Assembly (NCBI GenBank): GCA_963674745.2
Contig: CAXXDV010000003.1
Coordinates: 2,240,001-2,304,000 of the forward strand
Source: Desulfosudaceae bacterium
GTDB lineage: Bacteria > Desulfobacterota > Desulfobacteria > Desulfobacterales > Desulfosudaceae
DNA length: 64,000 nt
Reading direction: 5' to 3'
In this document: in pieces, positions 19,791 to 24,143 of the stretch
How positions within the stretch are numbered: position 1 is the first letter of the stretch
How the letters are laid out: each line of letters begins with the position of its first letter
The notes under the pieces: model-generated
What the model was told of the DNA's origin: nothing
Database searches by the model: none
The model's input: the letters and a program-made list of their open reading frames with translations, nothing else
Position numbers and translations under genes: made by a program

Positions 19791-20570
19791 TCAATCCTTC
19801 AATTGCCGGCTGATTTCAGCGGCCACCTTTTCACCGGACAGCAGCATACCACCGAAAATCGGTCCCATACGGGGACCGCCAAAGGTGGCGTTGCCGGCCA
19901 TTCCGGTTACATAAAGGCCGGGATAGACCTCCCGCGTGTTCTCCAGGGTCAATGATTCAGCCCGTTCCGACCACATGGATTTTTCACCTTCTATGCCGCC
20001 GCTGGCGGTATTCAATGTTCCGGGGGTTTTCTCGGATACCACCCGGACCACTTCAGTAGCATGGCCGGTGGCGTCAATCACAAAACCGGACCTGATGGCC
20101 AATGGATCGATGTGTAACCCGGCCATCTCGACCGGAGACCAGTTAAGCACCAGGCCGGTCACCCGTCCCGGCCGGATGAGCACGTCCTCCACGCTGACGC
20201 AGTTAAAAACCGTCAGACCCGCTTTAACCGCCCGGCTGGTCAGGGTCGAAACAGCTTCCACGGCATCAGTGGTGTAATAATCATCCTGATATTGACGATA
20301 ACCGACACCTGTTTCATCCAGGATGTGCAGCGCGCTCTTTTGTACCACGATTTCGTTGAACATCATGCCGCCGCCCCACATGCCGCCGCCGATACTTAAT
20401 TTACGTTCATACATAGCCACCTTGTGACCGGCCCTGGCCAGATAAAAACCGGCCACCAGTCCGGACGGTCCACCGCCGACAATGGCCACGTCTATCTCCA
20501 GATTGGCTGTCAATTTTTCATAATACCGGTCGATAATTGCCCGGGTGATGATGACTTCATTGAGTTCCAT
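19791..20570 (-). CDS. thi4: Sulfide-dependent adenosine diphosphate thiazole synthase (Thi4)
   Basis: [45 protein letters not shown]. Confidence 0.95.
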
Positions 20571-20573
20571 GTA

Positions 20574-21863
20574 TTATTTTCCTTTTATCTCCGAAATCGT
20601 GTTATGCAGCTTAACCGCGCACAGATCGCCGCACATGGTGCATATCTCTTTTTCTCCGGCTTCGCTCTCCTCACGGCGCTTTCCGGGTAAAACCGGATCC
20701 AGAGCAAGGCGGTACATGCCTTTCCAGTCCAGTGCTTTCCGACATGCCGACATCTCAATATCCCGTTCTATTGCGCCCGGCACGCCTTTGGCAATATCAC
20801 CGGAATGAGCGGCAATCCTTGCCGCAATCACGCCCATACGGACGTCTTCCATGTCCGGCAGGCACAAGTGTTCGGCCGGGGTGACATAACAAAGAAAGTC
20901 CGCCCCGGCAGCGGCCGCCACCGCTCCTCCGATGGCGGCGGTAATATGATCATATCCCGGGGCGCAATCCGTGGTCAACGGGCCGAGCACATAAAACGGC
21001 GCGCCATCACAAAGCTCTTTTTCGAGCTGCATGTTGGCTGCAATCTGGTTCAGGGGAACATGTCCCGGCCCCTCGATCATCACCTGAACCCCGGCCGCTC
21101 TGGCGCGCCGCGCCAGTCCGCCCAGGACCACCAGCTCTTCGATCTGGGCAGCATCCGTGGCATCGGCTATGGCACCGGGGCGCAGCCCGTCGCCCAGGCT
21201 CAACGTCACATCATATTTGAAAGCAATGGCCAGTAAACGTTCAAAATCCGCATACAGGGGGTTCTCCTGCTGATTATGGTGCATCCACGAAGCCAGAAGC
21301 GCGCCGCCCCGGCTGACAATACCGGCCACCCGATCGCCTTCTCTGGCCAGACGACTCGCCTTCTGGGTCACGCCGCAATGAACGGTAATATAATCTATCC
21401 CCTGTTGACACTGCTCTTCGATAACTTCGAATAACCTGTCCGGCACCATTTCATAAAAAGCCCGTGCCTGGCAACTCATCTCGGACGCCACCGCGTAAAT
21501 GGGGACCGCCCCTACCATGACCGGTGAATTTTCCAGAACGAGCTTCCTGACGGCTTGCAGGTCGCCTCCGGTGGACAAATCCATCACACTGTCGGCCCCG
21601 GCGTTAACGGCTATTTTCAATTTTTTAAGTTCTTCAGCCGTATCAAAATGCTCCGGAGAAGTGCCGATATTGGCATTGACTTTCGTCCTCAGGCCGTTAC
21701 CGATTCCCATGGCCGGAAAATCCCGGTTAATATTCTTCGGGATAACAATCCTGCCGGAAGCGACCCCTTCCCTGATCATTTCAGGCGAACGGTTTTCACT
21801 TGCCGCGACAAGCTTCATCTCGTCCGTTACAACGCCCTGTCTGGCCTGGCTTAACTGTGTCAT
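20574..21863 (-). CDS. thiC: Phosphomethylpyrimidine synthase ThiC (short form)
   Basis: [52 protein letters not shown]; adjacent to thi4 with a TPP riboswitch upstream. Confidence 0.93.
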
Positions 21864-22002
21864 AATACAGCCTCCTTTTTATAGCCCCGGTGATTCAAAA
21901 GCTCAAAATTGTTTTCCAACTGTTCTTTTTTTAAAAGCCCGCCGGTAACTGCTGCTTTCTCAAGAACGATTATTCCACAACCCTGGTTTATCGTCGGCAG
22001 AT

Positions 22003-22030
22003 CTGGATTCTGACGTTCGCCAGAATGACG
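22003..22030. repeat. REP-like palindrome (TGGAT...ATGAC family); a relative lies at 56961-56990
   Basis: CTGGATTCTGACGTTCGCCAGAATGACG hairpin; 56961 CTGGATGCCGGATCGGAGTCCGGCATGACG. Confidence 0.55.
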
Positions 22031-22070
22031 AATATGGAGATAATGTTTCATACCAGAAATTGCGAGTTCC

Positions 22071-22130
22071 ATCACTTAATCACCTAAACACATAATCACA
22101 TAATCACTAAGCATTAACCACCAGATCACA
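22071..22130. repeat. Octamer tandem array (TAA[CTA]CAC[ACT])n
   Basis: atcact taatcacc taaacaca taatcaca taatcact; continues beyond the IS at 23768-23783. Confidence 0.8.
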
Positions 22131-22284
22131 CGCCAAGGCTGAAGCGAATTGTCACCTTAACACCTAAAACATTAACACCCTGATATGATTGACAGTTGTC
22201 AAATGGAAAATAGTTCTCCTGCCAGTTTTTAATCTGGTCTCCTTGCATTTATGAAATTCCAGGGTACCCGGAGGGGCGGAACCT

Positions 22285-22420
22285 TTAATGCGACGGTTGT
22301 TCACTCTGATATACGCGGGTTGGATACCGCATGACTTTTCTTCGTCGCGGAGCTGCCTCTGTCTAAAATCTGGAGTTAGGCCGAAAGGCTTATCCTATAG
22401 GGTGTCCGAGGGTTCTCCTT
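22285..22420 (-). ncRNA. Candidate bridge RNA/seekRNA core (two internal-loop hairpins); transcript ends uncertain
   Basis: Stems GCGACG/CGTCGC and GGAG..CCTC/GAGG..CTCC enclose loops that match the reconstructed target and the junction sequences. Confidence 0.7.
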
Positions 22421-22521
22421 TCCGTGGCTGCGCCCCCGCGGCTGCCCTGGAATATGATGTTGTAAATGGTCTATCGAACCTCCTGTTGATCATGTTTTTG
22501 TATTTTGCCTTTTGATTGGCT

Positions 22522-23637
22522 CTAATTTGTCAAAGATGCTTCGGATTCAATGGCGATTGCCCAGATAAAACCGCAAAGTTCCCGGGCGATAGCGGTTATA
22601 ATGACCTGCTTGGTTTTTCCTTTGGCCCAAAAATGCCGGTAGCGTCCACAGAGTCTTAATTGTGCTTTCCAGGAAATATCACGGATGCTTTGCGGTAATC
22701 CTTCCTGTTTCTTCAGTAATGCTCGAGTAACCCGTGCTCTGTGCCGGTACGACCAGGCCGCTTCAACCAGTATGCGGCGCACATGCGAATTACCGGTTTT
22801 GGTGATCGGGCCGCGCTTGATATTTTCGCCGGTGGAATATTCTGATGGCACCAGGCCAAGATAGCTCATCAGTTGATCCGGGTGGTCAAAACGATTAAAA
22901 CTTCCGATCTCCACGGTGATTATAGCGGCAGCGAGTAACGAGATGCCGCGCAGGCTCTGGAGCGCTTGAACGACAGGAAACATCCGCCATTGCGGTATGA
23001 GCTGATGTATCTGCTCGGTGAGCCGCTGAACACGCAGGCTGCAATGATCCAGATGGTCGACATATTCTTGCAGGACAATTTGCTGGGACTCATGGGGCAT
23101 TTTGATATCGGCAATCCAGCGCCGATGAGCCTGGGTCCACGGCGTACGTCCGGTATACGTAAAACCGCTACGCAGCAGAAAAGCCGACAATCGCTGCTTG
23201 CAACGTTTTTCATCCTGCTTGATATCACTACGCGCTCTGACCAGGTCTCGCAAGGCCTCGTCTTCGGCAAGGGGAACATGAACGGAAGTCAAGTCGCCGG
23301 ATCGATGCAAACGCGCCAGCATAAGAGAATCGCGCCGGTCATTTTTAATCCGGTTCCCGCTCTGCTTGGGAATCAGCGAAGGCGCTACCACCTTACAGTC
23401 AAAACCCTTGGCAGTAAGATGACGATAGATCTGATAACCGCAGGGACCGGCCTCATACACAAAATGCAGATCGGCATTTTTACTGACCATCTTACGTGTC
23501 ACCTTGTCCAGTGCCGCCAATGTTCCATCGATTTGACCATAGTGTACAACTTCACCATTACACCCGCCTTGGGCGATGGAAATATCAATACTTTTTTTGT
23601 GGACATCCATACCGATAAATATGCTATTCTTCTTCAT
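22522..23637 (-). CDS. IS110-family DEDD transposase/recombinase
   Basis: IGMDVHK, YEAGPCG, KNDRRDS (DEDD); LGLVPSEYSTG catalytic Ser; GPITKTGN..VRRILVEAAW. Confidence 0.97.
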   Translation of the reverse strand: MKKNSIFIGMDVHKKSIDISIAQGGCNGEVVHYGQIDGTLAALDKVTRKMVSKNADLHFVYEAGPCGYQIYRHLTAKGFDCKVVAPSLIPKQSGNRIKNDRRDSLMLARLHRSGDLTSVHVPLAEDEALRDLVRARSDIKQDEKRCKQRLSAFLLRSGFTYTGRTPWTQAHRRWIADIKMPHESQQIVLQEYVDHLDHCSLRVQRLTEQIHQLIPQWRMFPVVQALQSLRGISLLAAAIITVEIGSFNRFDHPDQLMSYLGLVPSEYSTGENIKRGPITKTGNSHVRRILVEAAWSYRHRARVTRALLKKQEGLPQSIRDISWKAQLRLCGRYRHFWAKGKTKQVIITAIARELCGFIWAIAIESEASLTN

Positions 23638-23787
23638 GACCTGCCTCCTTGGTATTGGCTCTGTGCCAGGTTAATGTAGGTTGACCTTTAGCATAACCCA
23701 CGTTTGCAAGGATGGCAGGTCATTTCCTTCTATTTTAACTGTCAATCATTATGTCTAAAACGTTATTTAACCACTTAACCACATTCG

Positions 23788-23826
23788 AAAAAAAAAGGCT
23801 GGTCCCGCAACAGGAACCAGCCTTTT
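23788..23826 (-). terminator. Intrinsic terminator of the TPP riboswitch expression platform
   Basis: Minus strand GGCTGGTTCC-TGTTGCG-GGACCAGCC followed by a T9 tract. Confidence 0.85.
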
Positions 23827-23844
23827 AAAATACATCAAAATCAC

Positions 23845-23922
23845 TGACTGTTCCCTTCGCTGGCATTATCCAGATCAGGTTCAAAGGGTATAATCTCAGG
23901 CAAATCTGCCACCCCCGGTCAG
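23845..23922 (-). ncRNA. TPP (THI-box) riboswitch aptamer
   Basis: Minus strand CTGACCGGGGGTG...CTGAGATTATACCCTTTGAACCTGATCTGGATAATGCCAGCGAAGGGAACAGTCAG matches THI-box hallmarks; points toward thiC-thi4. Confidence 0.95.
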
Positions 23923-23950
23923 AACAAGAAGCATGAGCGCTTGTTCGTTT

Positions 23951-24027
23951 TGGTGGGCCGTGAAGGAATCGAACCTTCAACCTACTGATTAAGAGTCAGG
24001 TGCTCTGCCTAGTTGAGCTAACGGCCC
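23951..24027 (-). tRNA. tRNA-Lys (anticodon CTT), encoded CCA
   Basis: GGGCCGTTAGCTCAACTAGGCAGAGCACCTGACTCTTAATCAGTAGGTTGAAGGTTCGATTCCTTCACGGCCCACCA cloverleaf. Confidence 0.97.
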
Positions 24028-24068
24028 ATCGGCACGCGGCCATTACCATGGCCGCCAATTACGGTGTC

Positions 24069-24097
24069 ACTATAATAATCGTTAAAATGCAAGTCAA
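24069..24097 (-). promoter_or_regulatory. Sigma-70 promoter for tRNA-Lys (and probably the riboswitch leader)
   Basis: TTGACT-17nt-TATAGT on the minus strand. Confidence 0.7.
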
Positions 24098-24143
24098 GGA
24101 GAAAATGGGCCTGTTTTTCACTCTGAATTTCCAACCTTAAGCA

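Follow-up and report, generated by a model that had tools for sequence, protein, structure and literature searches.

The question raised by this locus is how an insertion sequence in the leader of a thiamine gene came to its place, and whether that choice can be read from its own non-coding sequence. The window denotes the whole stretch of 64,000 nucleotides that was analyzed. Within it, the element sits in the leader between a TPP riboswitch and thiC (window 19791-24027). The element and its surroundings comprise the following features.

22182..23756, minus strand: complete insertion sequence of 1575 bp, one copy of the CT core counted; based on CT at both junctions, a second copy with the same ends and conserved ends in homologs.
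22175..22181, plus strand: left target half ACACC with CT core; the identical 7 nt stand beside copy 2.
23755..23761, plus strand: second CT core copy with right target half AAAAC; the identical 7 nt stand beside copy 2.
22187..22198, no strand: right-end copy of the subterminal inverted repeat, TGATTGACAGTT on the plus strand; read from the sequence, conserved in homologs.
23737..23748, no strand: left-end copy of the subterminal inverted repeat, AACTGTCAATCA on the plus strand; read from the sequence, conserved in homologs.
22522..23637, minus strand: transposase gene, 371 aa, DEDD/RuvC-like domain and Tnp domain; D11, E62, D100, D103 and S268-T269-G270.
23833-23926, minus strand: TPP riboswitch (Rfam, 69.8 bits) with its own terminator at 23793-23826.
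23954-24027: tRNA near the TPP riboswitch.
20574-21863: thiC, neighbour of the element.
19791-20570: thi4, neighbour of the element.

The dinucleotide CT was found at both junctions (22180-81 and 23755-56), nothing else was common to the two, and the boundary of the element is ambiguous by this 2-nt core. Removal of the element at the core restores ACACC-CT-AAAAC, as a preliminary description of this DNA had proposed. The insertion-site sequence is ACACCCTAAAA, also written ACACCCTAAAAC. The 12-bp subterminal inverted repeats are set 5 and 6 nt inside the ends, and the non-coding sequence within the element measures ~117 nt upstream of the transposase gene versus 340 nt downstream of it. In the relatives considered below the ends are conserved (...CAA(C/T)CATATC-AG on the RNA side, AG-ACATAATG(G/A)TTGACAGTT on the other side), so that their flanks are readable. 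A congeneric genome (G002, locus L086) keeps the order of tRNA, riboswitch and thiC. It was rejected as an orthologous empty site, its leader being only ~55 nt long from terminator to thiC start and free of the octamer arrays found here, and the element boundary is instead based on copy 2 and on the 12-mer target at five places of the genome where it is unoccupied. At the present locus the element splits the riboswitch from thiC, which lie ~1.9 kb apart, so that the insertion may have changed the thiamine regulation of thiC in this strain. A 71-aa open reading frame between the element and thiC (21860-22075, minus strand) showed no Pfam match, was absent at that position in the related genome examined and is probably not a gene.

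The 371-aa protein carries both domains of the IS110 family, the N-terminal DEDD domain (PF01548 DEDD_Tnp_IS110, E 1.7e-17) and the C-terminal Tnp domain (PF02371 Transposase_20, E 3.7e-21), and reached 253 bits with NCBIfam NF033542 'IS110 family RNA-guided transposase' at a cut-off of 140. Solved structures matched were those of ISCro4 (9t56, E 4e-10) and IS621 (8wt6, E 4.5e-7). Residues D11, E62, D100 and D103 align with the catalytic acidic residues of IS621/ISCro4, in an N-terminal alignment that is weak, and T269-G270 faces the Ser-Gly nucleophile motif of IS621, so that the catalytic residues of the family are accounted for; TG is described as an accepted variant of this motif in IS1111 (Siddiquee 2024, PMC11187229). 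The 2-nt core common to donor and target, without terminal inverted repeats or a long target duplication, is likewise that of an IS110-family element. The preliminary description had stopped at this family. The assignment holds at the level of Pfam and NCBIfam, and has to be corrected to the IS1111 subgroup, with the RNA downstream, subterminal repeats of 12 bp, and the CT reading on the strand that carries neither gene nor RNA. The repeats fall within the 7-17 bp given for IS1111 (Durrant 2024, PMC11208160), the gene is followed by the longer of the two non-coding regions, which contains the guide RNA, and the IS1111 motif GL-P----S(t)G is present as GLVPSEYSTG at residues 261-270. Only the length of 371 aa lies outside the 330-350 aa typical of IS1111, which is a tendency and no strict criterion; matches of the relatives reach query residues up to 362-371. 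No named ISfinder relative of the element was identified. Four distant IS110-family transposase genes (22-30% identity) occur in the same genome (G000:C3:1612671-1613525, C1:2189387-2190241, C3:2335150-2336007 and C3:1846142-1846999), two of them forming a pair with equal scores.

Folding of the minus strand of 22182-22521, the 340-nt non-coding region, gave a minimum free energy of -99.3 kcal/mol (z = -3.9), and 0 of 100 shuffles were as stable. The predicted structure consists of a long closing helix that holds two arms, each with an internal loop. All parts lie on the minus strand.

22258..22451, minus strand: structured core of the predicted seekRNA/bridge RNA, from fold and covariation.
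22427-22451 with 22258-22282, minus strand: closing helix P1, ~25 bp; compensatory changes in 17 of 21 P1 pairs.
22397..22407, minus strand: target loop, 5' side, GGACACCCUAU; ACACC at 22401-22405, CU core at 22399-22400 and one more matching A at 22398; covaries with the RNA-side flank (30 unique pairs).
22372..22396, minus strand: apical hairpin of the target arm with a UUUC loop, from the fold; most of 37 distinct segments show the same two stems, with compensatory variants.
22360..22371, minus strand: target loop, 3' side, AGAUUUUAGACA; UUUU guide at 22365-22368, AG core at 22363-22364 and candidate handshake bases ACA at 22360-22362; covaries with the other flank (33 unique pairs).
22331..22342, minus strand: donor loop, 5' side, AAGAAAAGUCAU; pairing with the core G and the left end of the element is limited to GUC (22333-22335) and one A.
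22315..22330, minus strand: apical hairpin of the donor arm; four pairs kept in 40-41 of 41 sequences, without variation.
22296..22314, minus strand: donor loop, 3' side, GUAUAUCAGAGUGAACAAC; AUAUC guide at 22308-22312, AG core at 22306-22307, then nearly invariant AGUG at 22302-22305; matches GATAT+CT at 22180-22186.

The short strings on which the preliminary description had built were all present where it had placed them. In the fold, TAGGGTGT (22398-22405) and CTAAAA (22363-22368) face each other on opposite sides of one internal loop, and CTGATAT (22306-22312) lies in the second, just as the minus-strand fold had been expected to show. A scan of 21800-24100 with Rfam 15 in E-value mode found no match in 22182-22521 at E up to 1; the only families that reached gathering scores nearby were the TPP riboswitch and a tRNA.

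The conservation of this structure was analyzed in relatives of the element. Scanning one genome per species yielded 79 loci with transposases 43-81% identical (best segment), mostly from Desulfobacterales, Desulfuromonadales and related MAGs, with five copies in Desulfosarcina widdelii PP31. Both conserved first-arm anchors were found downstream of the gene in 49 loci, both own copies counted. After removal of L072, L073 and L075, whose anchors were doubtful, and of 6 exact duplicates and 2 truncated loci, 41 distinct core sequences (40 related elements from other genomes in the set) were aligned by MAFFT; as the scaffold was well aligned in this way, no covariance model was built. The consensus structure has 39 pairs. 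In total 97.0% of the cells were paired compared to 88.1% in shuffles, only 35-48% were paired when the partners were slid by 1-3 columns, and 0 of 500 shuffles reached any of five structure measures. Compensatory changes were observed in 20 of the 39 pairs; the closing helix, with 21 pairs, accounts for 17 of these. Covariation with homologous elements, proposed beforehand as a check of the fold, was thus found, and the scaffold is conserved. The inner stems hardly vary in this alignment and speak neither for nor against the structure. One subgroup has the apical hairpin of the target arm displaced by 1 nt. As the MAFFT alignment was used without a covariance model, this hairpin was judged not by pair counts but by single-sequence folds of 37 distinct segments, which gave a two-stem form with many compensatory variants. 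Among the aligned cells 51 G-U stood against 15 A-C, an excess which fits an RNA on the transposase strand.

Two observations concern the ends of the relatives. In the closest ones (L013-L034 and relatives) the left end is ~110 nt longer than in this element (~117 nt here), L024 and L040, and the extra part, located ~110-220 nt upstream of the transposase start, has a conserved inverted repeat CATCATGGCC ... GGCCATGATG. At L007 (2376-2400) an extra 9-bp copy of the right terminus with core (CCATATCAG) lies between the guide-matching flank CTTCAG and the left end, and looks like a footprint or a tandem-junction remnant.

The target loop carries ACACCCU(A) and UUUUAG(ACA), which match the halves of the insertion site on opposite strands. 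ACACCCU has the same sense as the plus-strand left half with core, so it would pair with the bottom strand, while UUUUAG is complementary to plus-strand CTAAAA. This is the bridge RNA geometry described by Durrant 2024 (PMC11208160), in which the bottom strand is bound by the left guide and the top strand by the right one, with the core contained in both. As a control for chance, 200,000 mononucleotide shuffles of the 340-nt non-coding region were searched for both motifs in order within 60 nt; the 7-mer (left half and core) together with the 6-mer (core and right half) was held by 23 of them.

A stronger comparison is provided by the flanks of the relatives (L055, L056 and L072 without the second anchor; L073, L075 and L077 excluded). 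For the RNA-side flank against the 5' side of the target loop, 29 of 38 loci with a readable flank matched at 5-6 of 6 positions, 6 at 4 of 6, and three (L004, L015, L019) at 2 or fewer. Counted over 30 unique pairs, 136 of 180 positions matched (permutation mean 70, maximum 99), a value reached by 0 of 20,000 permutations. Position by position, from the sixth to the first beside the core, the matches numbered 7, 23, 27, 28, 25 and 26 of 30, which indicates a 5-nt guide plus core. For the other flank against the 3' side of the loop, 119 of 198 positions matched in 33 unique pairs (permutation mean 66, maximum 91; 0 of 20,000), with 7, 8, 16, 28, 29 and 31 of 33 per position, indicating a right target guide of 3-4 nt plus core; here L006, L017 and L034 matched at 2 or fewer of 6 positions. 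Some of the low-match loci on either side may have mis-set ends. At L019 (right flank) and at L006, L017 and L034 (left flanks), one flank fits the guide and the other does not; these four may stem from off-target insertion on a half match, from rearrangement after insertion or from ends that were set wrongly, and half-match recombination is the subject of a 2026 preprint.

Altogether, 29 distinct 7-nt strings of guide and core were found among the 49 loci. This natural variation of the guides is the equivalent of reprogramming and the strongest evidence for the guide reading. The proposal of a target-binding loop with two guides around a GAAA/TTTC hairpin is hence supported by the fold, its covariation, the second copy and the tracking of the flanks, and the further proposal that target specificity can be inferred from the loops is carried by ~40 relatives, whose loops track their own flanks.

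We conclude, with a probability of about 90%, that the 3' non-coding region of this IS1111-type element encodes, on the transposase strand, a guide RNA that fixes its insertion site. The anatomy of the element, its fold, the covariation within the structure and between guides and flanks, and a second copy in the same site carry this reading.

For the donor loop the data are less uniform. Its 3' side, AUAUC with AG, matches the RNA-side end GATAT+CT (22180-22186), as stated in the preliminary description. Both partners are invariant in the relatives, which is consistent with pairing and puts the right donor guide beyond the reach of covariation. The left donor guide had been described as a weak match only, and so it is: in this copy the pairing comprises GUC (22333-22335), opposite the core G and the two outermost bases of the left end, and a single additional A (4/6). 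With this weakness of the left donor guide, the loops are complementary to both strands of target and donor, as in the IS110 family. In the relatives the left donor guide reads UAAGUC or UAUGUC and matches at 5-6 of 6 positions; L033, with an altered left end, shows a matching change in the guide (AAUC), and L025 has kept the G opposite a T.

The loop matches had further been said to extend over the product junctions, reminiscent of handshake pairing. The counts themselves are correct, with TGTCTAAAA at 22360-22368 equal to 23752-23760 (9/9) and CACTCTGATAT at 22302-22312 against 22176-22186 (10/11). In IS621, the right guides continue beyond the core by two bases that pair with the other DNA once strands have been exchanged (Hiraizumi 2024, PMC11208158). 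The 9/9 in the target loop arises because the core is followed by ACA, with which the left end of the element also starts. Among 37 loci with a readable left end, 35 start with ACA, and their RNA has AC in 24 and AG in 11 cases; at L025 and L033 the left end starts with ATA and the RNA has AU. The first base accordingly fits in 37 of 37 and the second in 26 of 37, with two informative covariations, so that the support for a handshake in the target loop is mixed. The donor loop speaks against its part of the claim, as it is nearly invariant although the targets differ. We consider it rather probable that the extension beside CTGATAT (CAC-U) belongs to the fixed RNA scaffold and that the 10/11 match to the left product junction is a coincidence. 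The AGUG after the donor core hardly changes in 41 sequences, while the left target halves vary (ACACC, GGACA, GAGCC, GAACC, AGGCA, GGGCA and others), and only the C two positions from the core fits the targets generally. Moreover, beside the core the donor loop has an A, for which a T of the element itself would be the partner, and pairing of an RNA loop with its own DNA partner blocks strand exchange in IS621 (Hiraizumi 2024, PMC11208158). In favor of a handshake, three of the four donor-loop positions do pair with the target in this element, and the C conserved at that target position in all relatives could reflect the need for one handshake pair.

The mobility of the element was judged from its copies in the genome. 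A second copy, the only other one, is identical over 1575 bp with intact reading frames. It is flanked by ...AACACC-CT and CT-AAAACC..., i.e., it occupies the identical 12-bp site in the identical orientation with different outer flanks. Insertion of other copies at unrelated sites, the outcome named beforehand as refuting the guides, was therefore not observed. The directly adjoining flanks of both copies are alike (~27 bp with one difference on one side, 8 bp identical on the other), because both copies lie in 8-bp-repeat arrays. The array sequence is also present without the element elsewhere in the genome (L003), and the exact 12-mer was found unoccupied at five further genome sites, which indicates that activity is low or recent. 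The arrays follow the consensus CYYTAAAA with variants such as CTTTAACA and ACTTAACC, for example at 22080-22181, 23757-23790 and G000:C1:157023-157054; 71 arrays of the strict unit (3-6 units) were counted in the genome versus 0 in a shuffled genome.

Regarding expression, the promoter scan yielded a single promoter-like site, where chance alone predicts 2.4, and no site upstream of the RNA, and the one strong terminator was that of the TPP riboswitch. The RNA would hence most simply arise by read-through from the transposase gene. In addition, a promoter may form at the circle junction only, by analogy with the promoter described at the RE-LE junction of IS621 (Durrant 2024, PMC11208160). 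When the ends are joined via one core, its two candidate halves come to lie 18 nt apart.

22197..22202, minus strand: TTGACA, putative -35 half of the junction promoter, right end; conserved in homologs.
23748..23753, minus strand: CATAAT, putative -10 half of the junction promoter, left end; conserved in homologs.

None of the RNA runs contains the element itself. In three sediment metatranscriptomes 5-10% of its words are present; the contigs that match at 85% likeness fall mostly on the conserved scaffold (22271-22384), and one contig covers 22256-22433 with 6 differences. We are aware that these contigs come from relatives (85-95% likeness) and cannot tell whether this RNA is transcribed, where it ends or on which strand it lies, that their summed depth is no measure of expression, and that uncovered parts prove nothing. 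In a DNA run that does hold the element (X4), the summed contig depth over 22271-22384 was 1300-2000 compared to ~19 over most of the element, with many contigs 85-95% alike, which suggests numerous diverged relatives of the RNA scaffold in that data set.

The guides might be real and the element nevertheless no longer mobile in this host, either because RNA or transposase is not made or because the weak left donor guide prevents donor capture. The presence of only two copies while five exact sites are empty, a left donor guide weaker than in the relatives, and an RNA without a promoter-like site of its own agree with such a loss. We regard it as unlikely, since the identity of both copies over 1575 bp with intact frames points to recent transposition. 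A choice of site by the protein itself, which would read the octamer arrays or inverted repeats in the DNA and leave the non-coding matches as a by-product of past recombination with target DNA, is highly improbable: both copies do lie in very similar arrays with alike flanks, and a preference of the protein for arrays is conceivable, but among relatives that share the conserved ends and the scaffold, 29 different short insertion sites occur, each matched by the element's own loop, the structure shows RNA-type covariation with an excess of G-U, and in experiments with family members the RNA was required and reprogrammable (Siddiquee 2024, PMC11187229).

With the guide RNA as the preferred reading, the element fits an IS1111-type member of the IS110 family with a predicted seekRNA/bridge RNA, a new example of a system published in 2024. 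Location of the RNA, mechanism, predicted bridge RNAs in 93% of the catalogued IS1111 elements and loop-target concordance across orthologues have been described for IS1111 (Durrant 2024, PMC11208160; Siddiquee 2024, PMC11187229). Like ISEc11, ISPa11 and ISKpn4 as described in PMC11187229, it has a long downstream non-coding region, subterminal repeats and the GL-P----(S/T)G motif, and two short segments that match both target strands and overlap at the insertion point, with the top-strand match (in transposase orientation) 5' of the bottom-strand match. It differs from them in the length of its transposase (371 aa versus 330-350 aa for the family), and, as noted above, its left end is short compared to its closest relatives.

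With IS621 (Durrant PMC11208160; Hiraizumi PMC11208158; PDB 8wt6) the element shares two internal loops in the order target-binding, donor-binding, the strands addressed by the guides, a CT core in each guide and the aligned DEDD residues, and also the right target guide followed by donor-matching bases in the handshake position. However, the protein match is distant (E 4.5e-7, mainly in the C-terminal domain) and Thr replaces the nucleophile Ser241. The guide RNA is encoded at the opposite end of the element and not on the strand that reads CT, a long closing helix encloses both arms, and the donor-loop base beside the core can pair with the element's own donor, a pairing that is inhibitory in IS621 (Hiraizumi 2024, PMC11208158). 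Host repeats as targets of IS110-family elements have been described before. ISPpu9 inserts in REP sequences (PMC12288879), also an abundant short intergenic repeat, where the present target is a CYYTAAAA octamer array without a REP palindrome; ISGme8 and ISGme9 lie beside octanucleotide-repeat sites of Geobacter metallireducens (PMC2700814), with the repeat GTTGCTYN there and CYYTAAAA here.

From this family the following mechanism would be expected, with RNA binding, circle formation and strand-exchange chemistry taken over from the published members. A guide RNA (seekRNA/bridge RNA) encoded on the transposase strand would hold two arms by its ~25-bp closing helix. The guides of the target arm would fix insertion at ACACC-CT-AAAA. 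The 3' side of the donor-arm loop (AUAUC+AG) would pair with the RNA-side end of the element, and the 5' side (GUC) weakly with the other end at the circle junction. The DEDD transposase, with Thr269-Gly270 for Ser-Gly, would then exchange strands at the CT core between circular IS and target.

Three features may be particular to this lineage, namely the enclosure of both arms by a long helix, the shortness of the right target guide and the donor-loop base that can pair with the own donor, in a comparison with published IS1111 elements by description only. A more far-reaching view, which we hold to be doubtful, is that these transposases of ~370 aa from genomes of the Desulfobacterota type, whose two RNA loops are enclosed by one long helix, constitute a separate IS1111-like lineage. 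Its guides would be unusually short (5+2 nt on one side, 3-4+2 nt and 1-3 handshake bases on the other), and it would tolerate an own-donor-pairing base of the kind that blocks IS621. Were this true, its rules of strand exchange would differ from those of IS621, and the 29 natural guide variants would be a ready map of the programmable positions in a compact recombinase.

The general picture of how such elements work is unchanged by the present finding, as mechanism and spread in IS1111 are already published. What it adds is an uncharacterised IS1111-type element whose sequence alone suffices to read its target specificity, with natural variation as a check on that reading. The scaffold at 22258-22451, the mapped guide positions and the panel of natural guide variants are a resource for testing this lineage as a programmable recombinase.
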